This document shows positions 1 through 24,834 of a stretch of DNA of 64,000 nt, in pieces (positions within the stretch are counted from its first letter, which is position 1; every line of letters begins with the position of its first letter). The DNA comes from Dehalococcoidia bacterium. GTDB taxonomy: Bacteria; Chloroflexota; Dehalococcoidia; Bin125. Below the pieces are notes generated by a model. That model did no database searches. It was not told the DNA's origin and saw only the letters and a list, made by a program, of their open reading frames with translations. The position numbers were made by a program, and so were the translations under genes. The stretch covers positions 1,469,827 through 1,533,826 of the forward strand of contig OZ244557.1 of assembly GCA_965217625.1 (NCBI GenBank), read 5' to 3'.

Positions 1-609
1 GTGGCGCAGCATGATGCGCAGGTTGGTGGCGCCGATGGTTTGGGCGGCGATGACGTACTCCCGCTCCCGCAGGGCCAGGGTCTCGCCGCGGACGATCCGC
101 GCCCAGGTCGCCCAGAGCCCGAAGACGAGCACGATGACGACGTTGGTCAGACTCGGGCCCCAGATCGCGGCCAGGAAGACGGCCACGAGGATGCCCGGCA
201 GCGCGAGCTGGTAGTCCACCATCGCCCCGATGGCGCGGCCGGTCCAGCCGCCGAACCAGCCGGCCAGCAGGCCCAGGAAGGTCCCGATCAGGGTCGCGAT
301 GGGAATGATGAGCACGATGGCGACCAGGGAGATGCGGGCGCCATGCATCAGGCGGCTGAGGTAGTCACGGCCGAAATGGTCCGTCCCCAGGGGATGATCC
401 CAGCCGCCGCCGTCGAAGACGGGGGGTTGGATCCGCCCGACGAGGTCCTGGGCGTAGGGATCCTGGGGGGCGAGGGCGGGACCGAAGACGCCGAGAAAGA
501 CGAAGCCCAGGAGCATGCCGAGCGTCACCGCGAGCGTCTTGGGCGAGCGCACGTGGAAGCGGCGACGGCGGCTCGGGACCTCGGCCAGGAGGGGGACGTC
601 GACGGCCAC
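1..609 (-). CDS. ABC transporter permease, DppC/OppC-like (N-terminal part; C-terminus runs off the window edge)
   Basis: Reverse-strand translation gives VAVDVPLLAEVPSRRRRFHVRSPKTLAVTLGMLLGFVFLGVFGPALAPQDPYAQDL...DYQLALPGILVAVFLAAIWGPSLTNVVIVLVFGLWATWARIVRGETLALREREYVIAAQTIGA. This is a typical binding-protein-dependent transport permease with an EAA-loop region. GTG start at 609, just downstream of the DppB stop. Confidence 0.75.
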   Translation of the reverse strand, partial: MAVDVPLLAEVPSRRRRFHVRSPKTLAVTLGMLLGFVFLGVFGPALAPQDPYAQDLVGRIQPPVFDGGGWDHPLGTDHFGRDYLSRLMHGARISLVAIVLIIPIATLIGTFLGLLAGWFGGWTGRAIGAMVDYQLALPGILVAVFLAAIWGPSLTNVVIVLVFGLWATWARIVRGETLALREREYVIAAQTIGATNLRIMLRH

Positions 610-612
610 GGC

Positions 613-1548
613 TCAGTTCACTCCCGTCCGGATGCGGGGGTCGAGGAAGGTGTAGGAGACGTCGACCACGAAGTTGACGAAGATGATCCAGGTGGAGGTC
701 ATGATCACGGCCGCCTGCACGACCGGGTAGTCGATCGCCTTGATCGACTGAATGATCAGGAACCCCAGCCCGGGCCAGGCGAAGACCGTCTCCACGATGA
801 CCGAGCCGGAGAGGATGTAGCCGACCTGCAAACCGAGCAGGGTGACGACGGCCAGCATGGAGTTGCGCAGCGCGTGCTTGCGGACGACGACGCGCTCGCG
901 GAGCCCCTTGGCGCGCGCAGTGCGGATGTAGTCCTGCTGCAGCGTGTCCAGCATGGAGGAGCGGGTGAAGCGCATGACCGCGGCGGCCGGGAATGATCCC
1001 AGCGTGATCGCGGGCAGGATGATGCTGGACACGCCCGACCGGCCACCCGTGGGCAAGAAGTCGAAGTTCACCGCCAGGAAGAGGATCAGCATCAGGCCCA
1101 GCCAGAAGTTAGGCACCGCCTGTCCCAGCAGCGCGAACAGCCGCGCGATCACATCGACGCCGCCGCCGCGGCGCACCGCGGCGAGGACGCCCAAGGGGAC
1201 GCCCACGGCGAAGGCGAAGCCGAGCGCCGCGACGCCCAACAGGACGGTGGCGACGATGCGCTCTTTGACCACGGTGGAGGCGGGGACGTGGGCGCGGAAG
1301 GAGGTGCCGAAGTCGAACTGGGCGGTGTCGCTCAGGAAGCGGCCGTACTGCACGATCAGCGGATCGTTCAGGCCGAGCTGGTCCTTGAACTTCTCGATCT
1401 GCTCGGCGGTCGTCTCGATCGGCGCCAGATAGCTGATCGGGTCGCCGGTGGCCCGGCTGAGGATGAAGACGCTCGTCACGACCAGGAACACGACCGCGAC
1501 GCCGCGAATGAACCGCGCGACCGCGGCGTAGGCCAGCTGAGTGTTCAT
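613..1548 (-). CDS. ABC transporter permease, DppB/OppB-like
   Basis: 311-aa ORF with 6 predicted TM segments, the RTARAKGL EAA motif and a C-terminal DPRIR tail. Paralogous to 6488..7423 and 12654..13613. Confidence 0.9.
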   Translation of the reverse strand: MNTQLAYAAVARFIRGVAVVFLVVTSVFILSRATGDPISYLAPIETTAEQIEKFKDQLGLNDPLIVQYGRFLSDTAQFDFGTSFRAHVPASTVVKERIVATVLLGVAALGFAFAVGVPLGVLAAVRRGGGVDVIARLFALLGQAVPNFWLGLMLILFLAVNFDFLPTGGRSGVSSIILPAITLGSFPAAAVMRFTRSSMLDTLQQDYIRTARAKGLRERVVVRKHALRNSMLAVVTLLGLQVGYILSGSVIVETVFAWPGLGFLIIQSIKAIDYPVVQAAVIMTSTWIIFVNFVVDVSYTFLDPRIRTGVN

Positions 1549-1696
1549 CCCGGCGTCGACCCCTCCGGTACTTCGGCCTCACCTAGGCAGCAGGCTAGCG
1601 GCGGCGTGTGGCCCCTGGCAATCGGGGCATCAAACGACCCCCGGGGCCGCCATGTCCATGGCGACCCCGGGGGGACGGTTCACAAGCCGCAGACTC

Positions 1697-3742
1697 CTAG
1701 GTGTTCACCGCGAGGTACCGAGGATTGAGTGACGGGTCCGCGTTGAGCCAGCCCTGGTAGGTAATGTCTTTCCGCGCTCCGTGCTCGTGCGAGAGGTTGA
1801 ACAGCGGGATGTTGTACGCCCCCTCGTAGTGGATCACCGCCGCGTCCCAGTAGATGTCGTCGCGCTTCTGCGGATCGAACTCCTGGTTCCCCTGGTCGAT
1901 CAGCGCCTGGAAGTCCAAGAACCCCGGTATGAAGTCGTCGTCCGCATTCGTGTGCGTGTACGGGTTGTCGATCGCCCCGATCAGGGTCCAGGCGAAGCCG
2001 GCGCCCGCCGGCGACCCGAGCTCCGTCGCCCCGTTCTGACTCATCAGGAAGGGCCAGGGCACCGTGTGGTCGCGAACATCGGCCAGGGCGCCGCCCAAGT
2101 CGATGTAGTCCGTTTCCACGTCGAATCCCACGTCGTTCAGCATCTGCTGGATGGACGGCACCCAGCGTTCCTCGCCCCAGATCCCGGTGGCGATGTGCAA
2201 TCGGAACTGGAAGCCGACCTGGCCCGCCTCCTCGAGCAAGGCGCGCGCCTTATCCGGATCGTAGCCGCGGAGGCCGGAGGGGCCGAGCGGCAAGGGGTAG
2301 CCAGAGGGGAATGGCGAGACGGCCGGCAACTCCAGGCCGGTCAGCAGGTTGTCGATGATCGCCTTCCGGTCGATGGCGTAGTTGGCCGCCTCCCGCACGC
2401 GCTTGTCGCGCCAGGGGTTCGGGCCGCCCGTGATCGGGTCGACGGACGCGTTGAGCGGCAGCTCCAGCCCCATGACGCGCAGGCCCGAAATGGTGAGCAC
2501 GTGGTGGTCGTCCGAATCCGCGAACAGCGCGGCGCCGTCCGGGCCGAGGCGATCGGCGACGTCGATCTCCCCCGCCTCCAGGGCGGCGATACGGGTCGAC
2601 TCCTCCGGGAAGTAGCGGGCGGTGACCGTCTTGGCCCAGTTTCCGTACTTATCGTGCGGGCCGGTGTCGGAGGGGTTGGGCTGGAAGAACCAGTCGTCCC
2701 AGCGCTCGCTGACCATCTCCTGGTCCGGCGTGAAGGAGACGAACGTATACGGGCCCGTGCCGACCGGGTTGCGGGCGAAGAACTCGTCACCGTTGTCCAC
2801 GATGTAGTCCCGAGGCGTCACCGCGGTGTTGGCGCCGCCCAGCTGCTCCGACATGTTGACGCTGGGCGGGTCCATGCCCACGCGAAGCGTGAGGTCGTCC
2901 ACCACCTGCAGGTCGTCGATAAAGGCGATGCGCGCGCGGATACCGCTCACGTAGTCCGGGTTGTACTCGGCGATACCCAGGTTGCGCTCGTAGAACCACT
3001 TCAGGCGCTCGGCGTCCAACGGCTCGCCGTTGTGGAAGGTGACGCCGGGCTGCAGCGTGAGCAGGGCGGCCGTGTTTTGGTCCACGAACTCCCAGTCCGA
3101 GTAGCCGCCGCTCGCTATGAACTGACGGCCCTTGTCCATGGCGAAGATCGGGTCGAAATGCAGGCCGTTGGTGACGGCGGCGCCGCCCTGGTCGGTATTG
3201 TGGTCCAGTGAGGCCGGCCAGGAGGCGTAGCCGATCCGCAGCGGGGCCTCCGTGTCGAAGCGGCTGACCATGGGGGCCGCGTCTTCCTCGTCGGCCATGG
3301 TGGCGGCGTCGGCGGCCTCGCGGGCGGCCTGGGCCGCGTCCTCGGCGGCCGCGGCGGCGGCGGCGGCGGCGTCCGCGGCGGCTTGCGCCTGATCGGCGCC
3401 CGCCTCGCGGGCCGCTTCCGCGGCAGCGGTGGCCGCAGCAGCCGCAGCCTCGGCCACCGCGGCGGCGCCGGCATCCCCGGCGGCGGCAGCCGCAGCGGCA
3501 GCCGCTTCCGCGGCGGCGGCGGCGCGTTCGGCCGCGGCGGCGGCGGCGCTGGAGTCGCCGGCGGCGGCGGCGGCCTCCGCGGCAGCCGCGTCGCCCGCGC
3601 CCCCGTCGTCATCGTCGTCGCCGCCGCAGCCGACCAAGGCCAGCCCGGCGGCGCCAACGCCAGCCTTCGCGCTGGCTCCCAACATCGTGCGACGGCTGAT
3701 CTTGTGGTGTCGCAGTCTCGTCCAATAGTTCGGCGTGCTCAT
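1697..3742 (-). CDS. ABC transporter substrate-binding lipoprotein (family 5, DppA/OppA-like) with a long Ala/Glu-rich linker (SBP1)
   Basis: Start MSTPNYWTRLRHHKISRRTMLGASAKAGVGAAGLALVGCGG is a Tat-like RR motif plus an LVGC lipobox. Then about 150 aa of A/E/D low complexity, followed by an SBP_bac_5-like domain. AGGAAGGAA SD upstream of the ATG at 3742. Confidence 0.85.
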   Translation of the reverse strand: MSTPNYWTRLRHHKISRRTMLGASAKAGVGAAGLALVGCGGDDDDDGGAGDAAAAEAAAAAGDSSAAAAAAERAAAAAEAAAAAAAAAGDAGAAAVAEAAAAAATAAAEAAREAGADQAQAAADAAAAAAAAAEDAAQAAREAADAATMADEEDAAPMVSRFDTEAPLRIGYASWPASLDHNTDQGGAAVTNGLHFDPIFAMDKGRQFIASGGYSDWEFVDQNTAALLTLQPGVTFHNGEPLDAERLKWFYERNLGIAEYNPDYVSGIRARIAFIDDLQVVDDLTLRVGMDPPSVNMSEQLGGANTAVTPRDYIVDNGDEFFARNPVGTGPYTFVSFTPDQEMVSERWDDWFFQPNPSDTGPHDKYGNWAKTVTARYFPEESTRIAALEAGEIDVADRLGPDGAALFADSDDHHVLTISGLRVMGLELPLNASVDPITGGPNPWRDKRVREAANYAIDRKAIIDNLLTGLELPAVSPFPSGYPLPLGPSGLRGYDPDKARALLEEAGQVGFQFRLHIATGIWGEERWVPSIQQMLNDVGFDVETDYIDLGGALADVRDHTVPWPFLMSQNGATELGSPAGAGFAWTLIGAIDNPYTHTNADDDFIPGFLDFQALIDQGNQEFDPQKRDDIYWDAAVIHYEGAYNIPLFNLSHEHGARKDITYQGWLNADPSLNPRYLAVNT

Positions 3743-3908
3743 GGTCAGTTCCTTCCTGAATACCGGCTGTCCCCTTGTGGGACCGCTCGGTGCAAGAGCG
3801 CGGACAGTATGACACATTTTCGGAGAATCGTCCCTGCCCCCCACCCAGAGTGATGTCTCCTAGTGGAGAAGAGCGATCACGGAGGTCGTCGGTGTCGGGC
3901 GCCGGGCC

Positions 3909-5486
3909 CTACGGGCGGACGCCCACCTTGGCCTTCGGGCCCAATTGGCTGCGCACGGCCTCGTAGGCCAGTTCCAGGAAGCGATGCACGTACGACCGCG
4001 TCTGGCGCGGGTCGATGATGTCCTCAATGCCGAAGGCCTCGGCGGTGCGGAACGGGTTGCGGAACTGCAGCAGGTGCGTCTCGATCTCTTTGCGCCGCGC
4101 GTCGGGGTCGGGCGCGGCCTCGATCTCGCGCTTGTAGGCCGCCGCGACGCCGCCCTCTATCGGGATCGAGCCCCAGTCGCCCGCCGGCCAGCCCACGCGG
4201 TAGTTGATCCGGCCGACGTTGGCCGTCGCCTGCCCGGCCATGCCGAAGTTCTTGCGCGTGATCACGGTGAAGACGGGCACCGTGGCGAGATAGGTCGCCC
4301 AGTAGGCGCGCATCCCGTGGCGCAGCGTGCCGGTGCGTTCCGCTTGCGGGCCGAGCATGAAGCCTGGCACGTCGGCCAGAAAGACGATGGGGATGTGGAA
4401 GTGGTCGCACAATTCGACGAAGTGACCCTGTTTGCCGGCCGAGTCGGCCGACATCGCGCCCGCGAGCACGTAGGGGTTGTTGGCGACGATGCCCACGGGG
4501 TAGCCACCGACGCGCGCGAGAAGCGTGTGGACGGAGGCGCCGAACTCCGGCTTGATCTCGAAGAACTCGCCGTCGTCGACGATCAGCTCCACCACCCGCC
4601 GCATGTTGTAGGCCCGCGTCCGCTTCCGTGGGACGATCGAGAGCAACTCCTGCTCTTCGCGATCGGGCGGGTCACTGCTGGGGCGCACCGGCGGCTGCTC
4701 GTAGACGTTGCTCGGCATGTAGGAGAGGAAGGTCTTCATCTGACGCAGCGCGTCCAGCTCGTCACTGGCGCGGTTGTCGAGCGCCCCGGAGGTCCCGATG
4801 TGGATGTCGGGGCCACCGAGCTCCTCCTTCGTCACCTTGTGTCCGAGTGCCCGCTCGACCACCGGCGGACCGGCGGCGAAGAGCGATCCTTCGGGCGTCA
4901 TCACCGTGAAGTGTCCCAACACGGCCGCGGCCGCGGCGCCGCCCGCGGCCGGGCCGGGGACCGAGTAGACCAGCGGCACCTCCTGGCCGGCGAGGATGGC
5001 GTGTCCGAAGGCATCGAACGAGCTCGGCAGATGGCCATGGCCGTCTCCCTCGGCGGCGACGTTGGCGGCCGCGCTCTCGATGAAGTGGATCAGCGGCACC
5101 CGGTACTCCCGCGCCATGTCCTCGAAGAAGTGACTCTTCGAGCGTTCCTGGCCGCTGATGTCGGCGGCCCCCCCGGAGACCGTGAAATCCGACCCCGACA
5201 CCACGACGCGGCGGCCGTCGACCTTGGCCAGCCCGCCCACGTGGGCCACGGGCGTGAAGTCGACGAATTGCCCCTGCTCGTACGTGCCCTGGCCCGCCAG
5301 GCTGCCGACCTCGTGGAAGCTGCCGGGGTCGGCGATCGCGTCGATGCGCTCCCGGATCGTCAGCTTCCCCCGTGCGTGCTGCCGGGCGACGCGTTCCTCA
5401 CCGCCGAGCTTGAGCGCCAGGCGGCGGCGCATATTGAGTTCATCGACCTCGGGCTGCCAGTCGCGGGGCTGCTGCGGTTGGGGCAT
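3909..5486 (-). CDS. Acyl-CoA carboxylase carboxyltransferase (beta) subunit, PccB/AccD-like (CT1)
   Basis: Carboxyl_trans family. Diagnostic segments VDELNMRRRLALKLGGEERVARQHARGKLTIRERIDAI and PGFMLGPQAERTGTLRHG. Start at MPQPQQPRDW (5486). Confidence 0.85.
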   Translation of the reverse strand: MPQPQQPRDWQPEVDELNMRRRLALKLGGEERVARQHARGKLTIRERIDAIADPGSFHEVGSLAGQGTYEQGQFVDFTPVAHVGGLAKVDGRRVVVSGSDFTVSGGAADISGQERSKSHFFEDMAREYRVPLIHFIESAAANVAAEGDGHGHLPSSFDAFGHAILAGQEVPLVYSVPGPAAGGAAAAAVLGHFTVMTPEGSLFAAGPPVVERALGHKVTKEELGGPDIHIGTSGALDNRASDELDALRQMKTFLSYMPSNVYEQPPVRPSSDPPDREEQELLSIVPRKRTRAYNMRRVVELIVDDGEFFEIKPEFGASVHTLLARVGGYPVGIVANNPYVLAGAMSADSAGKQGHFVELCDHFHIPIVFLADVPGFMLGPQAERTGTLRHGMRAYWATYLATVPVFTVITRKNFGMAGQATANVGRINYRVGWPAGDWGSIPIEGGVAAAYKREIEAAPDPDARRKEIETHLLQFRNPFRTAEAFGIEDIIDPRQTRSYVHRFLELAYEAVRSQLGPKAKVGVRP

Positions 5487-5600
5487 CGGGGGCTCGTTTC
5501 GATCATGCGTCGGGCGGGGTGGGATCATCCGTGCCGGCGCCGTACCCGCCGGGCCGGGGCCCATCCGATGCTACACACGGGAGCGCTGTGGGCGCACGAC

Positions 5601-7534: not shown

Positions 7535-9559
7535 CTAGACGTTCCGCTGGCGAAGGTTCCACACCTCGACGGTTGAGGGCAGGTTCGCGAACTGCGGCCA
7601 CTCCAGGTTGCCGGCCGCGACGGTTGGTTGGACGAGCTCGAAGAGGTAGATCCAGGAGGCCTGATCGTAGTGCAGGTGGGCGCCCTCGTTCAGGAGCGCA
7701 TTCTGTTTGTCCTGATCGAACTCTGCCTCGGCCTCGTCGTAGAGGGCCTCGATCTCTTCGAAGATGGGGTCCGAGAGCTCTTCGATCCGGTGCGAGAAGA
7801 CCGCGGGCGTTCGCGACGACTCGAGGACGGCGATCAGTGGGTGGTTGCCGGCCGACTGCGGCATCAGGAACGGCACGTCGGTCTTCTTCTCGCGCAGGTC
7901 GGAGAAGTACTGGGAGATCTCCTGGGTGCGAATCTCGGCCCGGATGCCGACCTCTCGCAGCATCCCCCCCACGGCCTGGAAGAACGTATCGGAGTTGGTG
8001 TAGAGGCCCGCTGGGTAGCGGATCTCGGTGTCGAAGCCGTCGCCCCAGCCGGCTTCTTCCAAGAGCGCCCGGGCGCGGTCCGGGTCGTAGCCCCAGTCCT
8101 TGTCCGCGAGGGGGCCCTGCGGGCCGTCGTTCCCGCCCTGGTCGACCGCGAGCGTGTAGGTGTGGAACTCTTGGCCCGTCATGATCTCGTTGATGATCAA
8201 GTCGACGTCGACGGCCAGGTTGGCGGCGATGCGGACCCGCCGGTCCCGCCAGGGGTTGGGGCCGCCGCCGACCGCGTTCTCCAGCAGGTGCTGCGGCAGC
8301 TGGAGGTGCAGGCCGCGCTGCGCGCGGTGGAACCAGACGACGAAGTCGTCGTCGGCTTCGAAGGGCTCGGCCAGGTCCGGGGCGATCCGGAGGGCGACGT
8401 CGATCTCGCCGGCCTCCAGGGCGAACAGCCGCGCCTGTGCCTCCGGGATGTTCGTGGCCGTCGCGTTCTTGATGTAGGGAAGCCGCTTTTCATGCGCGAA
8501 GTCGCGGCTGTTGAGGAAGTCGTCGTTGCGGGTGCTGCGGATCTCCTGGTCCGCCTCCCAGGAGAGGAACTTGAAGGCCCCGAAGCCGACGGGGTGCTGC
8601 GCGACCCCGTCGGGGCCCTGCTCCTCGGCGTGGCGTCTCGACATCATCGGCAGGCGCGTGAGAATGCTGGGGGCGCCCGAACTCGGCGGGTCCATCGCGA
8701 CCCTCGCGGTGAACTCGTCCTCGATCCTGGGCTCGCCGAAGGTCGCGAAGTCGGCCGCGCGCCCCACGAAGTTCGGGTCGCCGGCCCAACGCCCGCCCGT
8801 CCGTTCGAGGTTGAATTTGAACTCTTCGGCGGTGACGGGATCGCCGTTATGGTACATCACGCCCTGTCGGAACGTGAACAGGATGTTCGCGTTGGCGTCG
8901 ACGAACTCCCAGTCCGAGGCGCCCCCCTGCCCGGCGGAGCCATCCGCCGTACGGGCAACGGGGTTATCGAAGTGGCAGTGAATGTTGAAGGCGCTGTGTC
9001 CCCCGAACCCCGCCTGGGCCTGGGGATCGAGCGTGGACGAGAAGACGTCGTAGCCGAGCACGAGACTCGCGTCGAGGTTGTAGTCGCCGGCGGGCGCCAT
9101 CTCTTCGTCGCCCGCGGTGGCGGCGTCGGCGGCCTCGCGGGCGGCCTGGGCCGCGTCCTCGGCGGCGGCAGCGGCGGCAGCGGCGGCCTCCGCGGCCGCT
9201 TGCGCCTGGTCGGCGCCAGCCTCGCGGGCCGCTTCCGCGGCGGCGGTGGCCGCAGCAGCCGCAGCCTCGGCGACCGCGGCGGCGCCGGCATCCCCGGCGG
9301 CGGCAGCCGCAGCGGCAGCCGCTTCCGCGGCCGCGGCCGCGCGTTCGGCCGCCGCGGCGGCGGCGCTCGAGTCGCCGGCGGCGGCCGCGGCCTCCGCAGC
9401 GGCGGCGTCGCCCGCGCCCCCGTCGTCATCGTCGTCCCCGCCACAGCCGACCAAGGCCAGCCCGGCGGCGCCAACGCCGGCCTTGGCGCTGGCTCCCAAC
9501 ATCGTGCGACGGCTGATCTTGTGGTGTCGCAGGCTCGTCCAGTAGTTCGGCACGCTCAT
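7535..9559 (-). CDS. ABC transporter substrate-binding lipoprotein with Ala/Glu-rich linker (SBP2)
   Basis: The first ~160 aa are near-identical to SBP1 (MSVPNYWTSLRHHKISRRTMLGASAKAGVGAAGLALVGCGG plus A/E linker). The mature SBP_bac_5-like domain is divergent. Confidence 0.85.
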   Translation of the reverse strand: MSVPNYWTSLRHHKISRRTMLGASAKAGVGAAGLALVGCGGDDDDDGGAGDAAAAEAAAAAGDSSAAAAAAERAAAAAEAAAAAAAAAGDAGAAAVAEAAAAAATAAAEAAREAGADQAQAAAEAAAAAAAAAEDAAQAAREAADAATAGDEEMAPAGDYNLDASLVLGYDVFSSTLDPQAQAGFGGHSAFNIHCHFDNPVARTADGSAGQGGASDWEFVDANANILFTFRQGVMYHNGDPVTAEEFKFNLERTGGRWAGDPNFVGRAADFATFGEPRIEDEFTARVAMDPPSSGAPSILTRLPMMSRRHAEEQGPDGVAQHPVGFGAFKFLSWEADQEIRSTRNDDFLNSRDFAHEKRLPYIKNATATNIPEAQARLFALEAGEIDVALRIAPDLAEPFEADDDFVVWFHRAQRGLHLQLPQHLLENAVGGGPNPWRDRRVRIAANLAVDVDLIINEIMTGQEFHTYTLAVDQGGNDGPQGPLADKDWGYDPDRARALLEEAGWGDGFDTEIRYPAGLYTNSDTFFQAVGGMLREVGIRAEIRTQEISQYFSDLREKKTDVPFLMPQSAGNHPLIAVLESSRTPAVFSHRIEELSDPIFEEIEALYDEAEAEFDQDKQNALLNEGAHLHYDQASWIYLFELVQPTVAAGNLEWPQFANLPSTVEVWNLRQRNV

Positions 9560-9627: not shown

Positions 9628-9657
9628 ATCGTAATCCTGGGAACGCTATGGTGTCAA
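9628..9657 (-). promoter_or_regulatory. Candidate sigma70-type promoter for the SBP2 cassette
   Basis: On the gene strand: TTGACA, 18-nt spacer, TACGAT (TAnnnT), about 95 nt upstream of the SBP2 ATG. The same module is conserved upstream of SBP3. Confidence 0.35.
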
Positions 9658-9716
9658 CAAGGCCCGCCGATCAGGGAAGCGGCACGCGAATGGACGCGCG
9701 ACCGCCTCGCCCGGCC

Positions 9717-11543
9717 TCACGGCTCCTGCGTGTAGCCGTCTTCCCCCTCGCGGATGACGATGGTGGCGTTCGCGGGGACGTCCTCCAGCACGGTGCGGGT
9801 TCCGCCGGCGGGCCAGATGACCGTGACCCGCGCGACCAGCGGCGGATCCGCGGCCCCGGCGCCTATCCCGCTGCCTAGTCCGAAGTGCAGCGTCGACTCG
9901 CTTTGGCCGAGGAAGTGCGTCGCGACGCCGGCCTCCCGCAGCTGCACGCCGGCGCCGGCCTCCACCTCCACCTCGACGCGCGCGCCGATCGCGTCCCGGT
10001 TCGAGGCCGAGCCGATCAGGCGCAGGCGCAGCCAGGCGAGCTGATTCCCCCCATCGTTGCGGTACAGCGTGGGTTGGCCGGCGTTGTTGACGACGAACAC
10101 GTCGAGGTCCCCGTCGCGGTCGTAGTCGAAGGTCAGCAAGCCCTTGCCCGCGGCCGTGGAGACGATGCCGGCGTCGGCGGACCGCTCGGCCATGCGTCCC
10201 GTGCCGTCGTTCTCCCAGAGGCGCATGGGGTCGTCGTTGAAGACCACCTCGTGCTCCGTGAGCACGAAGCCGTTGGTCATGATCAGGTCCGGGTCGCCGT
10301 CGTTGTCGGCGTCGAAGAAGGCGGCCCCCCAGCCCCAGTAGCCGTCGCGCACGTCGGCGGCGTCCGTCTGGTCGGAGAAGCGCCGGCCGCCCTCGTAGGC
10401 GAAGAGGCGGTTGCCGGAGGGGCGCCAGTCGCACATCCCGGTGAGATACGACTCGCCCCCCAGGCAAGGGAACGAGCTCGCGATGGCGGTCACGAACCAG
10501 TCCAGATCGCCGTCCCCATCGACGTCGCCGAAGGTCGAGCCCATGCCGTTCTCGTCCGTGCCGACGCCCGCCGCGACGGTGCCGTCGCTGAACGTGCCGT
10601 CGCCGTTGTTCCAGAACAGGCGCGAGCGGCCGTAGTCGCCCGCGACGGCCAGGTCCGGCCAGCCGTCGGCGTCCAGATCGACGAAGGCGGTGCCGAAAGA
10701 GAAGGCGCCGTCGAAGCCCGAGTCCGTCAGCGATTCGGCATCGGCCATGGAGACCCCGGCGGCGGCGGTCACGTCCTCGAAGAAGCCGGGCTGCTCCGCG
10801 CCCAAGTTGCGCAGCAGGCGCGCGTGCGCGGGCGCGGGCGCGGGCGCGTCGCGCTCGATGTACTGGGCCAGGCGCCACTCCGTGGTATGGATGTCCAGCC
10901 AGCCGTCGCGATCGAAGTCCCCCATGGCGACGCTCATGCCGGCGCGGGGCGCGTCGTCCGCGACGGCGGCGCCCCGCGCCACGGCCTCCTCCCGGAACGC
11001 ACCGTCGCCGTCGTTGATGTAGAGGAGGAAGCGCGGCGCCGCGATCGTGGTGACGAACAGATCCTGGTCGCCGTCGTTGTCGATGTCGCCCCACCATGCC
11101 CCGTTGGTCGGATAGGAGATCGTCGCCAGCCCGGCGGCCTCCGTCACGTCGGCGAAGGTCCCGTCGCCCTGGTTGCGGAAGAGGAGGCCGGGGCCGTCCA
11201 GCCGGGTGACATAGAGGTCGATCCAGCCGTCGCCGTCGTAGTCGGCGGCGGCGGCGCCGCCGGTGGCTCGCTCGACCAGGCAGCCGGTCGCGCCGGGCGG
11301 GTAGCCGGCGAAGATGCAGTCGGGCGTGGCCCGGAACTCGTGCTGGACATAGGAGAGGCCGGACTCCGCCGTGACGTCGGTGAACAGCAAGCGGGGTGGC
11401 GGCGGCTCGTCCGCCCCGCCGCAGGCCGTGGTCAGCAGCGCGGCGGCGACGCCGCCCAGCGCCCACGCCCCACAGCCGCGAACGATTGACCGCGCCCGCC
11501 AGACAAGCGCGGCACGGCGGACGGAGGGGTGGGGGAGCGGCAT
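9717..11543 (-). CDS. CRTAC1-family protein (FG-GAP/VCBS beta-propeller repeats plus a C-terminal ASPIC/UnbV domain), lipoprotein
   Basis: Multiple DxDxDGxxD repeats (DYDGDGWIDLYVT, GDIDNDGDQDLFVT, FDADNDGDPDLIMTNG). C-terminal RLRLIGSASNRDAIGARVEVEV. LLTTACGG lipobox after a signal sequence. Start uncertain (11543 or 11720). Confidence 0.75.
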   Translation of the reverse strand: MPLPHPSVRRAALVWRARSIVRGCGAWALGGVAAALLTTACGGADEPPPPRLLFTDVTAESGLSYVQHEFRATPDCIFAGYPPGATGCLVERATGGAAAADYDGDGWIDLYVTRLDGPGLLFRNQGDGTFADVTEAAGLATISYPTNGAWWGDIDNDGDQDLFVTTIAAPRFLLYINDGDGAFREEAVARGAAVADDAPRAGMSVAMGDFDRDGWLDIHTTEWRLAQYIERDAPAPAPAHARLLRNLGAEQPGFFEDVTAAAGVSMADAESLTDSGFDGAFSFGTAFVDLDADGWPDLAVAGDYGRSRLFWNNGDGTFSDGTVAAGVGTDENGMGSTFGDVDGDGDLDWFVTAIASSFPCLGGESYLTGMCDWRPSGNRLFAYEGGRRFSDQTDAADVRDGYWGWGAAFFDADNDGDPDLIMTNGFVLTEHEVVFNDDPMRLWENDGTGRMAERSADAGIVSTAAGKGLLTFDYDRDGDLDVFVVNNAGQPTLYRNDGGNQLAWLRLRLIGSASNRDAIGARVEVEVEAGAGVQLREAGVATHFLGQSESTLHFGLGSGIGAGAADPPLVARVTVIWPAGGTRTVLEDVPANATIVIREGEDGYTQEP

Positions 11544-11727
11544 TGGGGGGGCCCTCAGGGTCGCCAGGAGGGGCCGGCCGTGGGCCCGAGCTGCGTCCGG
11601 AGAACCGGCTGGGCCAGCTCGCAGCGCCGGTGGATCTCGTCGACCTCGGGTTGCCGGATCATCGAGTTGCCTTTCAGCGCGCCGGGAGTGGGCGGTGCGC
11701 GTCAGGGCAGGAGCATACAAGCGGGGC

Positions 11728-12657
11728 TCAGCGGATATTCCGCAGGCGCGGATCGAAGGCGTCCCGCATGCCGTCGCCGACGAAGTTGAACGACATCACG
11801 AGCAGGATGATGGCGATCGCAGGCGCGACGAGCGGCCAAGTGCCCCGCGTCAGCATGGTCTGGTAGCCCTGCGACACCATCCCGCCCCAGGCGGGCGTGG
11901 GCGGCTGCACCCCGGCGCCGATGAAGCTGAGCCCGGCCTCGATGAGGATGATGCCCGCCGCCGAGAGCGAGGCCAGCACCATGACCGGCGCGACGACGTT
12001 GGGCAGCATGTGCCGCCCCATGATGCGTGCCGGGGGCGCGCCGATCGCCCGCGCGGCATCGACATAGACCTCCTGTTTGATCGAGAGCACGATGCCGCGC
12101 GTGAGCCTCGCGTAGCCCGGTGACCAGACCACGCCAACGATGATCATCGTGTTCGTCAAGCTGGGCCCCGTGGCGCCGACAACGGCGAGGATGAGGATCA
12201 ACCCCGGCATCGCCATGACCGCGTCGACGAAGCGCATGATCACCAACTCGTCCAGCTTGCCGCCCACATACCCGGCCAGGAGTCCCAGCGGCACCCCGGA
12301 CCCCACCGCGATGCCGATCGCGACGATCACGATCTGCCAGGCGATCCGCGTGCCGAAGATCGTGCGGCTCAAGACGTCGCGGCCGAGCCGGTCGGTGCCG
12401 GCGATGTGATCCCAACTGGGGCTGTTGAAGACCGCCTCGCGCGTCTGTTCCGTCTGCAGCGGATCCGCCGGGGCGATCAGCGGGGCGAAGGCCGCCACGA
12501 TTCCGAAGCCGATCAACAGCACGCCCCCCGCGACCGCCGGCCGGTTGCGGAGATAGACGCGCAAGATCGCCCGAAGCTCCCGGACCCAAGCCCGCTCCCG
12601 CAGGCCGGACGTGGAGAACAGCGGCAGCGCTGTCGGGGGCGCCGTGCCGTCGCTCAT
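11728..12657 (-). CDS. ABC transporter permease, DppC/OppC-like
   Basis: Permease with GTDRLGRDVLSRTIFGTRIA and an EAA region. ATGA overlap with the DppB3 stop. Confidence 0.85.
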   Translation of the reverse strand: MSDGTAPPTALPLFSTSGLRERAWVRELRAILRVYLRNRPAVAGGVLLIGFGIVAAFAPLIAPADPLQTEQTREAVFNSPSWDHIAGTDRLGRDVLSRTIFGTRIAWQIVIVAIGIAVGSGVPLGLLAGYVGGKLDELVIMRFVDAVMAMPGLILILAVVGATGPSLTNTMIIVGVVWSPGYARLTRGIVLSIKQEVYVDAARAIGAPPARIMGRHMLPNVVAPVMVLASLSAAGIILIEAGLSFIGAGVQPPTPAWGGMVSQGYQTMLTRGTWPLVAPAIAIILLVMSFNFVGDGMRDAFDPRLRNIR

Positions 12658-13613
12658 AACGCCTCCCGGCCGGCGCGGATGCGCGGATCAAGCAGCGGAT
12701 ACGAGAGATCGACGATCAGATTCACGGCCACCACGCAGACGGCGAAGAACATCACCACGTTCTGGATGATCGCGAAGTCTTGATTGACCACCACGCTCTC
12801 CACGAACCAGCGGCCCATGCCCGGGATGGCGAAGACGTTCTCCGTGATCACCGCGCCGCTGAAGATCAGCCCGACCTGGAAGCCGAAGACAGTGATCACC
12901 GGGATCATCGCGTTGCGCAGCCCGTGCCGGATGATCACGGTCCGCCCTTGCAGCCCCTTGGCGCGGGCCGTGCGGATGTAGTCGTCGTTGAGCACGTTGA
13001 TCATCGCCGATCGTGTCTGCCGCATCAGCAGCGTCGTCGCGGCCAGGGAGATCGCGAGGACGGGCATCGCCATGCTCTTGAGGTTCTCGATGGGGTCTTC
13101 GCCGATCGAGACGTACCCGCCGACCGGGAGCAGATCCAACTCGAGCCCGAGCACCAGGATCAGCGCGATGCCGGTGAGGAACTCGGGGATCGAGTTCCCC
13201 ACGATCATGGTCGTGCTGGCCGCGACCTCGCGCTTGGAGCCGGGCTTCAGCGCCGCCAGCACGCCGATCGGAATGGCCACGACGAGGACCAGCAGGAGGC
13301 TCAGGACGCCCAACTCGATCGTCGCGGGCAGCCGCCGGGCGAACTGGTCCGTGATCGACTCCTGATTGATCAGGCTCAAACCCAGATCGCCCTGCAGCAG
13401 GTTGAACAGCCAGCGGAAGTAGCGCTGCATGAGCGGATCGTTGAGGTGCAGGCGATCGCGGATGGCGGCCAGCGACTCCGGGGTCGATTCGATGCCCCCG
13501 ATGCCGAAGGAGGGATCCCCCGGCAGCAGGTTCATCAACAGAAAGGAGACGAGGCTGACGATCCACAGGATCACGAGCGAGGAGAGGACGCGGGTGGCGA
13601 TGTAGCGGGACAT
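12654..13613 (-). CDS. ABC transporter permease, DppB/OppB-like
   Basis: 319 aa, RTARAKGLQGR motif, paralog of the two DppB-like genes above. Confidence 0.9.
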   Translation of the reverse strand: MSRYIATRVLSSLVILWIVSLVSFLLMNLLPGDPSFGIGGIESTPESLAAIRDRLHLNDPLMQRYFRWLFNLLQGDLGLSLINQESITDQFARRLPATIELGVLSLLLVLVVAIPIGVLAALKPGSKREVAASTTMIVGNSIPEFLTGIALILVLGLELDLLPVGGYVSIGEDPIENLKSMAMPVLAISLAATTLLMRQTRSAMINVLNDDYIRTARAKGLQGRTVIIRHGLRNAMIPVITVFGFQVGLIFSGAVITENVFAIPGMGRWFVESVVVNQDFAIIQNVVMFFAVCVVAVNLIVDLSYPLLDPRIRAGREAL

Positions 13614-13752
13614 CCGTCTTCGCTCGAATCACGCGGGCGCCGAACTGGCGGGCCCGCGACGCCCGATCCCAGGCCGCCGTTCGGCCGCAGCCGAGGACAA
13701 CCGCCGTGACCCCCGGCGGCGCACGCGCCGCCGGGGGTCCGGTTTCCCGGTC

Positions 13753-15999
13753 CTAGGTATTGATCCAGAGGCCCTTGTAGCCGTCGCCGTCGACATCGCC
13801 ATCGACAGGTCGCAGCCGGAACGCCCCGATGTTGCCCTGGGCGGCGAGGCCGGCCGGATACTGAACCCAGTTATACGTCCAGGAGTGGCCCTCGACATCG
13901 GCGCTGCCGTCGCCGTAGCTGGCGAAGAGCCGGTCGTACGGCGCCAGGCGATCCTCCTGCGCGGCGAAGCTCGCCGCCACGTTGAGAAGGTCCTCGGTCT
14001 CCGCGAGCCCCTGCAGCACCTCGTCGTTGGGGTAGTCCGCCAGGCTGGCGCGTCCCGTGCCGGGACCCTCCGCCGGCGAGCCGTACATCCAGCCCTTGAG
14101 GAGAAGTTCCATGGTGGGGCGCATCGTGACGTCCGGGTCGAAGGGCGACTCCCAACTGAGGCAAGCCGTGATGAAGTCGCCGGCCTGGAAGAAGCGGTCG
14201 AGCACGACCGACTCCGAGGCGTCGAAGTACTCGAGGTCCCAGCCGCGTTCCAGCAACTGATTGAAGACCGGCTGAGCCGAGCGGCGGTGGAAGTCCGTGC
14301 CGAAACCCAGGAAGACGCCACTGACCGGGTTGCCGTCGCCGAAGCCGGCGGCGTCCCGCAGCTGCTGGGCCGCTTGGAAGTCGGGCGGGTCGTAGTAGTT
14401 GGCCCCGGGCTGAATCGCCCAGCTCTCGGTGCTGGTGTTGCAGACCGACGCCTTGCCGCGTCCGTCGAAGGCCACGGCGTTGACCGCTTCCCGATCAACG
14501 CTGAGGTTGAGGGCCTTGCGCAGGCGGGGGTCGCGGAACATGTTGAATCCCTCAGCCGCCGGGTTCAGGTTGAACCACTCGCCCATCCAGGTTTGCCAAA
14601 TGCCCAGGCCCACCTGGAAGCCGTCGGCCTCCAGATCCGCCTGGAGGTCCGTCGTCATGCCGCCGGGGGGCTCGGCGTAACTGACCTCCCCATCCAAGAA
14701 CGCCGCCCACCTCCCTTGGGCGTCCGGACGGATGAGGATATCGAGTTCGTCCGCGTAGACGCGCTCATTGTCCCAGTAGCCGTCCCATTTCTCGCCCAGC
14801 CAGCGCTCACCATCCTGGTACTCGACGACCCGAGCGGGACCCGCGCCCACGGGATCGGTGATCGCCGTCTCGAAATGCGCCGGCGAGATCAGCATCCCGG
14901 CGCCCGGGTTGCCGTAGAAGCCCACGATGGTCGGCCCGAAGGGCTGCTCTTTCACCATGCGCCATGAGAGCTCATCGACGGCCTCGAACTGCGAGTTCGC
15001 GATCGCCGTCTGGGCGCGGCTGTTGCCCGCGGCGTCGGGGTCGGACTGCACGTACTCCATGTTGAGTTGCATGGCATTCGCGTCGACCGGCGCACCATCC
15101 TGGAACCGCGCGCGGCCCGCCGCGAAGTTGAAGATGTACGTCGTTTCGTTCGGAATCTCCCACGAATCGGCGAGCTCCGGCTGCACGCGGCCGTTGTCGT
15201 CGTAGCCCAAGACGGAGTCGTAGATGTACTTCAGGAAGCCGCCGTGGTCCGCGCCCGTCAGGGAGATGAAGGGGTTCCAGCCGCCGTCGATGCCGAAATC
15301 TCGCGTGCGGACGATCGTTCCGCCGTACACCGGCGCGCCGGCCGCGGCCGGCTCGTCCTCCTCGTCGGCCATGGTGGCGGCGGCGGCGGCCTCGCGGGCC
15401 GCGTCGGCAGCCTCTTCCGCCGCCGCGACGGCGGCGGCGGCGGTCTCGGCGGCCGCCGCGGACGCCTCTCCGGCGGCCGCCGCAGCGGCAGCCGCGGCAT
15501 CGGCCGCGGCCTGGGCGGCGGCAGCGGCAGCGGCGGTGTCCTCGGCGCCGGCTTCCCGCGCGGCGGCGGCGGCGGCTTCCGCTGCATCCGCAGCCGCCTG
15601 CGCGACGGCAGCGGCGCCCGCGTCGCCCGCGGCCCGGGCGGCCTCGGCCGCATCGGCGGCGGCATCGGCGGCGGCCTGGGCCGCAGCGGCGGCCTGTTCG
15701 GCGTCATCCGACTCCGCCGCTTCGGCCGCCAGGGCGGAGGCCGCCTCGGCGGCTTCGGCGGCGCGGCCCGCGGCATCGGCGGCGGCGCTCGCGGCCTCCG
15801 CCGCGGCAGCGGCGTCGCCCGCCGCCGCGTCGATCGCCGACGTATCGACGGCGGCCGGCGCGGCGTCATCGTCGTCGTCGCCGCAGCCGACGAGCGCGAG
15901 CCCGGCGGCCCCAACGCCGGCCTTGGCGCTGGCTCCCAACATCGTGCGGCGCGAGATCTTTCGCTGTCGCAGGGTGGTCCAATAGTTCGGTGTGCTCAT
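13753..15999 (-). CDS. ABC transporter substrate-binding lipoprotein with an extended (~200 aa) Ala/Glu/Asp-rich linker (SBP3)
   Basis: MSTPNYWTTLRQRKISRRTMLGASAKAGVGAAGLALVGCG plus a long A/E/D low-complexity region, then an SBP_bac_5-like domain. AAAGGA SD before the ATG at 15999. Confidence 0.8.
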   Translation of the reverse strand: MSTPNYWTTLRQRKISRRTMLGASAKAGVGAAGLALVGCGDDDDDAAPAAVDTSAIDAAAGDAAAAAEAASAAADAAGRAAEAAEAASALAAEAAESDDAEQAAAAAQAAADAAADAAEAARAAGDAGAAAVAQAAADAAEAAAAAAREAGAEDTAAAAAAAQAAADAAAAAAAAAGEASAAAAETAAAAVAAAEEAADAAREAAAAATMADEEDEPAAAGAPVYGGTIVRTRDFGIDGGWNPFISLTGADHGGFLKYIYDSVLGYDDNGRVQPELADSWEIPNETTYIFNFAAGRARFQDGAPVDANAMQLNMEYVQSDPDAAGNSRAQTAIANSQFEAVDELSWRMVKEQPFGPTIVGFYGNPGAGMLISPAHFETAITDPVGAGPARVVEYQDGERWLGEKWDGYWDNERVYADELDILIRPDAQGRWAAFLDGEVSYAEPPGGMTTDLQADLEADGFQVGLGIWQTWMGEWFNLNPAAEGFNMFRDPRLRKALNLSVDREAVNAVAFDGRGKASVCNTSTESWAIQPGANYYDPPDFQAAQQLRDAAGFGDGNPVSGVFLGFGTDFHRRSAQPVFNQLLERGWDLEYFDASESVVLDRFFQAGDFITACLSWESPFDPDVTMRPTMELLLKGWMYGSPAEGPGTGRASLADYPNDEVLQGLAETEDLLNVAASFAAQEDRLAPYDRLFASYGDGSADVEGHSWTYNWVQYPAGLAAQGNIGAFRLRPVDGDVDGDGYKGLWINT

Positions 16000-16066
16000 C
16001 ACGTGTCCTTTCGCAAACACATAGGGCCGTCGTCCCCACGGACGGCTCGACCATCAAGGCGCGGGG

Positions 16067-16095
16067 AGTCTAGCCCCGGGCATAGGGCCTGTCAA
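16067..16095 (-). promoter_or_regulatory. Candidate sigma70-type promoter for the SBP3 cassette
   Basis: Gene strand: TTGACA, 17 nt, TAGACT. Homologous in position and sequence to the SBP2 upstream module. Confidence 0.35.
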
Positions 16096-16180
16096 CGGAA
16101 TCCACCGCCCAGCGGAGCGGCGCGGGAGTGGTCGCGCGACCGTCTCGCCGGGCCTCAGGGCGACGGCGTGTAGCCGTCTT

Positions 16181-16211
16181 CCCCCTCTCCATCCTCCAGA
16201 TGGAGAGGGGG
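16181..16211. terminator. Perfect 13-bp inverted repeat hairpin (CCCCCTCTCCATC / 5-nt loop / GATGGAGAGGGGG)
   Basis: Seen directly in the sequence. It lies 58 nt downstream of the CT2 stop, inside a remnant of a CRTAC1 gene 3' end. No U-tract follows, so it is not a canonical intrinsic terminator. Confidence 0.4.
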
Positions 16212-16268
16212 TTAGGGGGTGAGGTCCGGCTCGCGACTGGGATCTCGCCAGCGGCGCAGGCGGTTCCC

Positions 16269-17828
16269 TCAGGGTCGCCAGGAGGGGCCGGCCGTGGGGC
16301 CGAGTTGCGTCTTGAGGACGGGCTGGGCGAGCTCGGCGAACTCGCAGAGCAGCGAGCGGGTGTCGCGGGGGTCGATGAGGTCGAGCCCGCTCGCCTCGGC
16401 CGTCTTGAAGGGCGACGAGTACTTGCGGAAGTCGTTCTCCAGCTCGAGCCGCTTGGCCTCGGGGTCGGGGGCCGACTCGATCACCCGGCGGAAGGCGGCC
16501 GAGGTGCCGCCCTCGATGTGCATCGAGCCCCAGTGCCCCGACGGCCAGGCGTAGCGCCGGAAGAGATGCGGGCCGGGGCGGTACTGCAAGCTGCCCGCCA
16601 GCCCGTACGACTGCCGGCAGATGAACGAGACCCAGGGCATGCGGCTGTGGATGATCTGGTACATGAAACGTGCGCCCGCGCGCTCGATGCCCTGCTTCTC
16701 GGACTCGGGGCCGACGAGGAAGCCGGGGTCGTCCATGAGCACGACCATGGGCAAGTGGAAGGTGTCGCAGAGCTGGACGAGGCGCGTGCACTTCTCGGCC
16801 GCCGCGACGTCCATCGAGCCGCCGCGCCGGTTGGGGTTGTTCATCATCACGCCCACTGGGTAGCCGTCGGCGCGGGCCAGGCCGATGATCCGGGAGGGGC
16901 CGTAGGCGGGGGCGATCTCGAAGAACGAGCCCTCGTCGAAGACGCCCTCGATGATGGGGCGCGGGTTGTAGGGCTTGCGGATGTCGCGCGGGATCAGCGA
17001 CAGCAGGCGCTCGTCGCGGCGGTTTGGGTCGTCGCCGGTTTCGACGCGGGGCGCCATCTCGTAGACGTTGTCGGGCAGGTAGCTGAGGAAGCGTTTGGCC
17101 TGCTCGATCGCGGCCGGCTCGTCGGGGGCGACGTTGTCGACCACGCCGCTGACGCGGGTGTGCACGCGCCAGCCGCCCAGGTCCTCCTTGTCGATGTCGA
17201 GGCCCAGGGCCGCCTTGACCACCGGCGGCCCGCCGGGGAACACCTGCCCCAGGCCCTTCGCCACGACGCTGAAATGGCTCAGCGGCGGGATGGGGGCCGC
17301 CCCGCCGGCGGCGGGGCCCAGCACGACCGTGACGACCGGCGCCACGTTGACGACCTTGCACATCCACTCGAACTGGGCGCCGTCGGGGATGTAGGTGCGG
17401 CCCAGCTCCGTGAACTCGTTCACGCTGCCCCCGGCGGCGTCCATGAGGTGCACCGTGGGCATGAGCATGGCCGACGCGTCGGGCTGGCCGTGGCCGATAT
17501 CGACCGCGCCGTCGCTGGTCCGGCCGGATGCGCCGCGGATGGTGAAGTCGGAGCCGCTGACGTAGACAGGTCGCCCGTTGACCTTGGCGACGCCGCGGAC
17601 GCGGGGGGCCGGGGTGAAGCCGGCGAGGGCGCCGTCGTCGTCGTAGGTGGCGTGACCCTGCAGCTTGCCCATCTCGCGCAAGGTGCCGGGGTCGACCAGC
17701 AGCGCCAGGCGCTCGCGGACGGTGAGCTTGCCGCGGGCGCGCTGCCGGGCGATGCCCACGGGCCCGCCCATGCCCTCGGCCAGCGTGTGGCGGCGCTGCA
17801 ACTCGTCGATCTCCGGCTGCCAGGTCAT
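16269..17828 (-). CDS. Acyl-CoA carboxylase carboxyltransferase (beta) subunit, PccB/AccD-like (CT2)
   Basis: Paralog of CT1. MTWQPEIDELQRRHTLAEGMGGPVGIARQRARGKLTVRERLALL... and PGFLVGPESEKQGIERAGARF. ATG at 17828. Confidence 0.85.
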   Translation of the reverse strand: MTWQPEIDELQRRHTLAEGMGGPVGIARQRARGKLTVRERLALLVDPGTLREMGKLQGHATYDDDGALAGFTPAPRVRGVAKVNGRPVYVSGSDFTIRGASGRTSDGAVDIGHGQPDASAMLMPTVHLMDAAGGSVNEFTELGRTYIPDGAQFEWMCKVVNVAPVVTVVLGPAAGGAAPIPPLSHFSVVAKGLGQVFPGGPPVVKAALGLDIDKEDLGGWRVHTRVSGVVDNVAPDEPAAIEQAKRFLSYLPDNVYEMAPRVETGDDPNRRDERLLSLIPRDIRKPYNPRPIIEGVFDEGSFFEIAPAYGPSRIIGLARADGYPVGVMMNNPNRRGGSMDVAAAEKCTRLVQLCDTFHLPMVVLMDDPGFLVGPESEKQGIERAGARFMYQIIHSRMPWVSFICRQSYGLAGSLQYRPGPHLFRRYAWPSGHWGSMHIEGGTSAAFRRVIESAPDPEAKRLELENDFRKYSSPFKTAEASGLDLIDPRDTRSLLCEFAELAQPVLKTQLGPTAGPSWRP

Positions 17829-24814: not shown

Positions 24815-24834
24815 GGCGGGGGTCCGTTCTGCTG

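Follow-up and report, generated by a model that had tools for sequence, protein, structure and literature searches.

The first 17,828 nucleotides (nt) of a 64,000-nt stretch of Dehalococcoidia bacterium DNA (GenBank assembly GCA_965217625.1, contig OZ244557.1, positions 1,469,827 to 1,533,826; the whole stretch is referred to here as the window) carry twelve minus-strand genes, which encode three import cassettes, each composed of an SBP_bac_5-type substrate-binding protein (SBP), a DppB-like permease and a DppC-like permease, together with two PccB-like carboxyltransferases (CTs) and one FG-GAP/ASPIC lipoprotein. Importers of the PepT family, to which such cassettes belong, normally need a heterodimer of DppD/DppF-type ATP-binding cassette (ABC) ATPases with oligo_HPY tails, and no such ATPase is encoded here. 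Our preferred reading, held with slightly better than even confidence, is that of a strain-variable array of ATPase-less Opp-type importers, which are energised in trans and paired with the CT-dependent catabolism of organic acids or coenzyme A (CoA) esters. In the proposed model, each cassette would consist of an SBP lipoprotein exported by the twin-arginine translocation (Tat) pathway, with an invariant leader and an Ala-rich tether, and a translationally coupled DppB-like/DppC-like pair, and one or a few ATPases encoded elsewhere would energise many cassettes, following in the Opp family the ‘multitask ATPase’ logic of MsiK and MsmX. The CT genes would occupy the 3' end of cassette operons, which is the usual dppDF slot. 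The imported solutes would be carboxylic acids rather than ordinary peptides. Family III CoA-transferases such as those encoded in related loci would turn them into CoA thioesters, on which the CT would then act within a catabolic route, by either carboxyl transfer or decarboxylation.

The array was delimited by a frame plot, in which a G+C content at third codon positions (GC3) of 0.85-0.95 picks out a continuous minus-strand gene series from position 1 to 17828 (the G+C content of the window is ~70%), and the Pfam and NCBIfam identities agree with it. Read 5' to 3' on the minus strand, the gene order is CT2, SBP3-DppB3-DppC3, the FG-GAP lipoprotein, SBP2-DppB2-DppC2, CT1 and SBP1-DppB1-DppC1. 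This bears out the threefold SBP/DppB-like/DppC-like pattern described in an earlier note on this DNA. That note also had the CTs and the CRTAC1-like lipoprotein separating the cassettes; these genes are indeed present, but CT2 precedes cassette 3 and separates no two cassettes in the window. The permease genes overlap by ATGA in DppB2/DppC2 and DppB3/DppC3, and the DppC1 start lies 3 nt past the DppB1 stop. Promoter-like sites, matching TTGACA-17/18-TAnnnT at 10 of 12 positions (three sites in the region against 0.9 expected), precede SBP2 and SBP3. Because at least these two genes have their own predicted promoter, the array is, as judged from its sequence, a same-strand series and not a single operon. 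An Rfam scan found no riboswitch upstream of the SBP genes, the sole Rfam match in the window being a tRNA at 48650-48722.

The missing ATPase was sought with two scans, one for Walker-A/LSGGQ motifs and one with a DppDF-type profile hidden Markov model (HMM), on six-frame open reading frames (ORFs) of at least 80 amino acids (aa). Both agree with the earlier note that DppD/DppF genes are absent from positions 1-17828, and no Opp-type ATPase was found anywhere in the 64-kb window, where the sole ABC ATPase is of the Znu type (42195-42998) and is encoded beside a Fur/Zur gene. The sequence beyond the left edge of the window was read from the two nearest chromosomes, ENA ERZ28763702 chromosome_1 (2.84 Mb; L001) and ERZ21829562 ctg258033l (2.90 Mb; L004). 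The first aligns to window positions 5576-1 at 94% nt identity, and to the rest of the region at 88-98%, and the second to positions 4677-1 at 90%. Past the edge, both encode the rest of DppC1, a 298-aa protein (u298; L001:15941-16837 and L004:5066-5962) in the slot after DppC1 that a CT takes after DppC2, a fourth SBP/DppB/DppC cassette and a third CT. The hypothesis that u298 is a hidden nucleotide-binding domain (NBD) was rejected, as it has neither a Pfam match nor a Walker motif. In L004, the array ends with the last CT (516 aa). The 10 kb after it hold unrelated genes (acetyltransferase, BNR, AP endonuclease, Ldh_2, MFS and molybdopterin oxidoreductase), of which the first two lie on the opposite strand, and the motif/HMM scan detected no ABC ATPase there. 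A shared DppD/DppF pair just past the left edge, as the earlier note had considered, is thus not what the relatives show, and two ATPase genes directly 3' of the truncated DppC1 gene are not seen in either of them, the flank being inferred by synteny.

The same absence is seen across the lineage. With the 46-aa SBP leader as query and one genome per GTDB species, at least 211 leader matches were confirmed, and the best 80 loci, chosen around leader-bearing SBPs and derived from ~37 metagenome-assembled genomes (MAGs) of Dehalococcoidia/Chloroflexota, were kept for analysis. Up to 11 leader-bearing SBP loci occur in a single assembly within this set. When a cis ATPase is counted as a same-strand ABC ATPase gene within 3 kb of a DppB-DppC pair, only one of the 70 adjacent pairs counted in 76 related loci has one (L064), and 69 do not. 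PepT importers are characterised by a pair of ATPase subunits (ABC_tran plus oligo_HPY) whose genes accompany those of the importer, and these are lacking in the window, in L001 and L004 and at 69/70 pairs. Other importers keep their operon ATPase: both the Znu-type system of the window and, in L021, an importer of the NMT1/SsuA type retain it, and these controls show that the loss is confined to the SBP_bac_5 cassettes.

The permeases themselves look functional. Each of the eight complete ORFs for permeases and SBPs is intact, with a GC3 of 0.87-0.95, DppC1 being cut by the window edge and identical (100% over 184 aa) to the 295-aa DppC of L001. The N-terminal extensions and EAA loops of OppB/OppC-type permeases are present, and NCBIfam Opp2B/Opp4C scores reach 265-325 bits, below the equivalog cutoffs. 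The EAA coupling loops are canonical in DppB (DYIRTARAKGL...H(A/G)LRN, with HALRN in DppB1) as well as in DppC (Y(V/I)xAA(R/Q)xIGA...RHxLP(N/S)), and the loop of DppC2 is intact. We also asked whether conserved EAA loops could reveal a shared ATPase and found them uninformative on this point, the motif being kept across the whole family. The ratio of nonsynonymous to synonymous polymorphism (pN/pS) between the window and L001 is 0.15-0.39 (0.22 for DppB1 and 0.15 for CT1). With ORFs intact, EAA loops canonical and pN/pS in this range, the cassettes look, from their sequence, to be functional and under purifying selection. The permeases had been described in the earlier note as close paralogs, but they are only moderately related: DppB1 and DppB2 are 55% and DppC1 and DppC2 52% identical, and the permeases of cassette 3 are 38-42% identical to those of the other two. 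Since the permeases are intact and apparently constrained, and a cis ATPase is absent from the window, its relatives and nearly all related pairs, supply of the ATPase in trans appears the likeliest reading. The idea in the earlier note that orphan ATPases serve the cassettes is thereby strengthened by elimination, although the ATPase itself was not found.

The only DppDF-type ATPase seen close to a cassette is a 538-aa protein in which two ABC_tran domains are fused, encoded in L064 and L090-L092 in a module that comprises two ABC_membrane-ABC_tran exporters, an SBP_bac_5-B-C set and the fused ATPase. Orthologues of the L064 protein at 78-100% identity are found only in relatives of 2.9-3.6 Mb; the two looked up (L064 and L090) are cis-encoded in the complete module, and homologues at 58% (L089) and 44-46% (L091 and L092) identity are likewise cis-encoded. 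The permeases of this module share only ~32% identity with those of the ATPase-less cassettes, and the EAA loops of the two groups differ. No other Opp-type system in the lineage was seen to have a cis ATPase, and the module may be of the metallophore type. Further ATPase-like ORFs in the loci are not of the DppD/F type and were set aside. Those in L070 and L080 are followed by ABC-2-type permeases, the one in L024, next to an ORF for a 1168-aa membrane protein, looks MacB/FtsX-like, a second ATPase in L064 carries a fused ABC_membrane exporter domain, those in L012, L052, L069 and L083 (545-643 aa) match the DppDF profile with one ABC domain only and look like exporters, and the L021 ATPase is SsuB-like and part of a complete NMT1-type operon.

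CT1 and CT2, which are 44% identical, have no signal peptide and are hence predicted to be cytoplasmic. Both have the full-length, two-domain Carboxyl_trans (crotonase-like) fold and score ~300 bits to the PccB structures 1VRG, 3N6R and 1XNY. Their best NCBIfam match is mmdA, at 336 and 317 bits against a cutoff of 999. Both oxyanion-hole motifs deviate from the canonical ones in the subfamily to which they belong: DSGGARIQEG is replaced by (D/E)(G/S)AGANV, with DG(A/T)GANV as consensus, and RKAYGGAY by RK(C/N)YGMAG. CT1 itself has ESAAANVAAEG and KNFGMAG and CT2 has DAAGGSVNEF and QSYGLAG, so that neither carries the canonical PccB/AccD motifs; the backbone-NH function of the altered motifs may be retained. 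The variant motifs are conserved in more than 100 homologues of at least 52% identity from Chloroflexota, Pseudonocardia, SAR324, Rokubacteria and Binatia, and the best matches to CT1 are 96% identical. On this sequence evidence, the CTs represent a distinct, widely distributed, multi-phylum subfamily within the acyl-CoA carboxyltransferase fold. The minus strand carries two more Carboxyl_trans paralogues, 6-8 kb upstream of the array (23432-25051 and 24835-26403): CT4, with 307 bits and 33% identity to CT1/2, and a degenerate neighbour with 64 bits in two short stretches.

The genes around these CTs suggest what they might act on. Members of the subfamily recur beside CoA-transferases in at least four phyla, and their neighbours often include genes for enoyl-CoA hydratases and luciferase-like monooxygenases. 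A family III CoA-transferase (CoA_transf_3) gene adjoins the CT gene in L086, L088 and L017, lies ~6 kb away in L087 and is doubled in L074, where the order is CoA-transferase-CoA-transferase-CT. Within 10 kb of a leader-bearing SBP, family III CoA-transferase genes occur at 16 of the 80 loci kept. CT genes, or genes for single-chain proteins joining biotin carboxylase (BC), biotin carboxyl carrier protein (BCCP) and CT, abut Opp-type cassettes in about five independent arrangements. These include DppC-CT with a gap of 37-115 nt (window, L001 and L004), SBP-B-C-CT-CT-CoA-transferase (L017), SBP-CT with a 36-nt gap (L038 and L063) and a 1139-aa BC-BCCP-CT gene directly upstream of DppB-DppC-SBPx3 (L013, L055 and L068). 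The uptake-plus-carboxylation module suggested in the earlier note is hence plausible in outline, with the reaction running towards either carboxylation or decarboxylation and with an acid as a likelier substrate than a peptide.

The SBPs point in the same direction. Each starts with the leader MSxPNYWTxLRHHKISRRTMLGASAKAGVGAAGLALVGCGGDDDDD, which combines a Tat motif, a lipobox Cys (Cys39) and a poly-Asp run. In SBP1, the Tat signal, lipobox (LVGC) and poly-Asp run are followed by a ~105-aa Ala/Glu/Asp-rich linker and the SBP_bac_5 domain, and SBP3 combines the leader of SBP1 and SBP2 with a ~185-aa linker, the linkers of the three SBPs ranging from 105 to 185 aa (leader and low-complexity linker regions at 3299-3742, 9116-9559 and 15325-15999, minus strand). 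This Ala-rich tether may serve to span an unusual cell envelope. Among seven paralogues, 38 of the first 46 residues are invariant and the mature domains are down to 25% identical; in the window, the mature domains share 36% identity between SBP1 and SBP2 and 27-28% between SBP3 and either of these (27% and 28%), in keeping with the mutual divergence noted earlier. SBP1 and SBP2 are 98% identical over their first 148 aa, with ~93% nt identity over the 5' 459 nt, compared with 36% for their mature domains, which indicates recombination or gene conversion over a common promoter-leader-tether module. Taken together with the leader at the at least 211 MAG sites, this 5' identity points to concerted evolution of the module. 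The closest solved structures to the mature domains are AgaA, NikA and AccA (E about 1e-22) and not OppA/DppA. AgaA binds agropinic acid and AccA agrocinopine, and with NikA these are small-molecule binders. The SBP scores are far under every NCBIfam equivalog cutoff, and at E values of about 1e-22 the nearness to AgaA/NikA/AccA is only an approximate guide to the uptake specificity (peptide, nickel or opine-type). Because of the CT motifs, the CoA-transferase and cassette neighbourhoods and these small-molecule-like SBPs, we propose uptake of an organic acid, its activation with CoA and a CT step, and a CoA-activated organic acid seems a more likely substrate than a peptide. In L006, L008, L012, L018, L019 and L021, orphan SBP_bac_5 genes with the same leader and no adjacent permease genes are found (~10000-12400 in each), so that these genomes have more SBPs than permease pairs.

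The content of the array varies between strains. Compared with L001, which is 92-98% identical, the window has an extra SBP3-DppB3-DppC3 segment (~11622-16265) between CT2 and the FG-GAP gene, whose lipoprotein product is 92% identical to its L001 orthologue. L001 lacks cassette 3 and has instead an extra SBP, 84% identical to SBP2. Upstream of the FG-GAP gene, 66 nt of the CT2 3' end are present a second time, and the sequence identifies this remnant as a footprint left when cassette 3 entered the interval from CT2 to the FG-GAP gene. The insertion is also marked by a duplicated 98-nt promoter segment (repeat D9; 9652-9749 and 16090-16187, 80% identical), which carries the promoter-like site and a remnant of the FG-GAP 3' end. 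Outside the window, in L004 (8144-9069) and L005 (6647-7572), gene calling splits the fourth-cassette DppB into pieces of 129 and 159 aa, which reflects either a frameshift or a pseudogene and hints at the ongoing decay of some cassettes.

Compared with the PepT/Opp-Dpp-Nik importers (TC 3.A.1.5; e.g. DppABCDF, NikABCDE and GsiABCD of Escherichia coli), the cassettes have the same cluster-C SBP, the same OppB/OppC permeases and the same SBP-B-C order. They differ in the lack of a cis DppD/DppF, in the window and in nearly all related cassettes, in having Tat lipoproteins with long Ala-rich tethers as SBPs and in the gene that follows DppC, which is a CT, u298 or FG-GAP gene. Many operons with an SBP and two permeases and without an NBD gene are also known from importers served by the multitask ATPases MsiK, MsmX and MsmK. 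Those importers belong to the CUT1 family and not to PepT, and the scale appears larger here, as judged from the leader-bearing SBP loci per assembly among the best 80 of at least 211; the orphan ATPase of the Dehalococcoidia cassettes was not found in the related loci. According to a 2020 analysis (PMC7658222), multitask ATPases are reported exclusively for CUT1 sugar importers. If our reading is correct, the shared-ATPase principle would extend from CUT1 to the PepT family, and an NBD would dock on permeases only ~40% identical to each other.

In the multi-OppA systems of Borrelia and streptococci, several binding proteins feed one OppBCDF. Clustered divergent SBP paralogues, and orphan SBP_bac_5 genes in relatives, are common to these systems and the present one, but here each cassette has its own permease pair, and it is presumably the ATPase that is shared and not the translocator. 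The CTs have the two-domain Carboxyl_trans fold of PccB/AccD (1XNY and 1VRG), the 12S transcarboxylase and MmdA/GcdA, and differ from these enzymes in that both oxyanion-hole motifs are altered, the mmdA score is far below its cutoff, no BC/BCCP is encoded nearby and the usual neighbours are family III CoA-transferases. In the annotation of Chloroflexota MAGs, among them those with bin names pointing to sponges, such cassettes would be scored ‘incomplete’ and such CTs ‘propionyl-CoA carboxylase’, and both labels may mislead metabolic reconstruction. The CT subfamily would be a defined target for enzymology, with a possible role in degrading carboxyl-rich organic acids, and the strain-level turnover of cassettes, with the promoter-leader-tether module in front of them staying invariant, would show how substrate range diversifies. 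We found no description of this pattern in the literature on sponge Chloroflexi/SAR202 with carboxyltransferases or ATPase-less transporters.

How far the transporters and the CTs belong together is one point on which the preferred reading is open to challenge. The CTs could be accidental neighbours, that is, ordinary acyl-CoA carboxylase beta subunits with an alpha subunit encoded elsewhere and no link to transport, which we regard as unlikely, though with a substantial residual chance. A CT gene lies within 3 kb of only nine of the 70 DppB-DppC pairs, an 81%-identical CT1 homologue (L002/L003) has UbiA and F420H2-quinone-reductase-like neighbours and no transporter, and the window has four CT-fold genes in 26 kb. 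CT paralogues appear to be abundant in these genomes, and part of the adjacency to cassettes could therefore be chance, and in Actinobacteria several AccD paralogues normally share one alpha subunit. These points count against the pairing that we propose, as does the finding that the 64-kb window contains neither a BC/BCCP gene nor a CoA-transferase gene, though a BC/BCCP partner could have its gene elsewhere. However, the same-strand spacing of 36-115 nt recurs in unrelated arrangements, one of them with a different architecture (BC-BCCP-CT), and the subfamily shows non-canonical active-site motifs and recurrence beside CoA-transferases in four phyla. The trans-energised part of the reading has its own difficulties: no candidate trans ATPase was located with the DppDF-type HMM in 1.6 Mb of related loci, and the fused ATPase of L064 was rejected as the shared partner, since it belongs to a separate complete module with divergent permeases and EAA loops and since no orthologue is listed on the 2.84- and 2.90-Mb chromosomes nearest the window. 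In addition, the left flank was read from synteny, and cassette content differs between strains, so that the source genome could differ there.

This last point, together with the fact that DppC1 runs off the window edge, would suit an ordinary multi-SBP peptide transporter in which a DppD/DppF pair just off the left edge serves the whole array. Such an arrangement is very improbable given u298, the fourth cassette and the CT that follow DppC1 in both relatives, the 10 kb free of ABC ATPases in L004 and the rarity of a cis ATPase at homologous pairs elsewhere. That the cassettes are decaying remnants, which have lost their ATPases and no longer transport, is scarcely easier to credit: the split DppB of L004 and L005, a 96-aa BPD_transp_1 fragment in L086 and the gain and loss of cassettes between strains fit with decay, but the eight intact ORFs with their high GC3 and canonical EAA loops, the pN/pS of 0.2-0.4, the conserved promoter-like sites and leaders and the persistence of the arrangement in ~37 assemblies do not. 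The DppB/C pairs might also work without any ABC ATPase, either driven by a CT-type decarboxylase, on the model of the Na+-translocating decarboxylases of methylmalonyl-CoA and glutaconyl-CoA, or as SBP-dependent secondary carriers. The CT in the usual dppDF slot, the mmdA family as best NCBIfam match and the failure to find a partner ATPase in the related loci or among the listed orthologues would agree with this. Yet the NBD-docking coupling helices are canonical, a CT is lacking near most ATPase-less pairs, u298 and FG-GAP genes also occur in the position after DppC, the window encodes no biotin carrier or decarboxylase beta subunit, and we know of no precedent for ATPase-free energisation of such importers. 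We therefore give this possibility very little credence, and the same holds for its general form, in which dozens of Opp-type pairs would have no dedicated DppD/F-type ATPase and would be driven by CT-fold decarboxylases or an ion gradient; if true, it would mean that the membrane module of an ABC importer had become uncoupled from the hydrolysis of ATP.

Table 1. Features of the array (window positions) and of the fused-ATPase module in related loci.
Feature	Position	Strand	Evidence and remarks
DppC1, OppC/DppC-like permease	1-609	-	N-terminal ~203 aa, C-terminal part past left edge; GTG start; BPD_transp_1 and OppC_N
DppB1, OppB/DppB-like permease, 311 aa	613-1548	-	BPD_transp_1 150 bits and BPD_transp_1_N; NCBIfam Opp2B 325 bits
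SBP1, 681 aa	1697-3742	-	SBP_bac_5 (PF00496) 189 bits
CT1, acyl-CoA carboxyltransferase fold	3909-5486 (525 aa, ATG) or to 5528 (539 aa)	-	Carboxyl_trans (PF01039) 340 bits
DppC2 permease, 296 aa	5601-6491	-	BPD_transp_1 107 bits; GC3 frame plot
DppB2 permease, 311 aa	6488-7423	-	BPD_transp_1 157 bits
SBP2, 674 aa	7535-9559	-	SBP_bac_5 171 bits
Predicted sigma-70-like promoter 5' of SBP2, TTGACA-18-TACGAT	9628-9657	-	In conserved repeat D9
FG-GAP/VCBS and UnbV_ASPIC (CRTAC1-like) lipoprotein, 608 aa, lipobox LTTAC	9717-11543	-	FG-GAP_3 161 bits, UnbV_ASPIC 53 bits
CT2 3'-end remnant, ~66 nt	11555-11621	-	Repeat D11; synteny break relative to L001
DppC3 permease, 309 aa	11728-12657	-	BPD_transp_1 and OppC_N; NCBIfam Opp4C 265 bits
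DppB3 permease, 319 aa	12654-13613	-	BPD_transp_1 and BPD_transp_1_N
SBP3, 748 aa	13753-15999	-	SBP_bac_5 125 bits
Predicted sigma-70-like promoter 5' of SBP3, TTGACA-17-TAGACT	16067-16095	-	In repeat D9
CT2, carboxyltransferase-fold paralogue, 519 aa	16269-17828	-	Carboxyl_trans 282 bits
Fused-ATPase module	L064:2-8056; L090:6442-16267; L091; L092		Luciferase-like gene in L064 and L090

Several other genes of the window lie outside the array. A gene for an Amt ammonium transporter (334 bits; 18215-19609, minus strand) is found ~390 nt upstream of CT2, with no adjacent P-II gene, and is followed further along by one for a 992-aa leucine-rich-repeat protein of a eukaryote-like type (19909-22887, plus strand). 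The related MAGs include bins named RHO, COS, SB06xx and TK10, which we take to be associated with marine-sponge metagenomes, and with the leucine-rich-repeat protein these names suggest that the organism may be host-associated. A KAP-family P-loop NTPase gene (44750-46195) and an 890-aa HTH_3/Peptidase_M78 (IrrE-like) ORF (26663-29335), both on the minus strand, are unrelated to the array.

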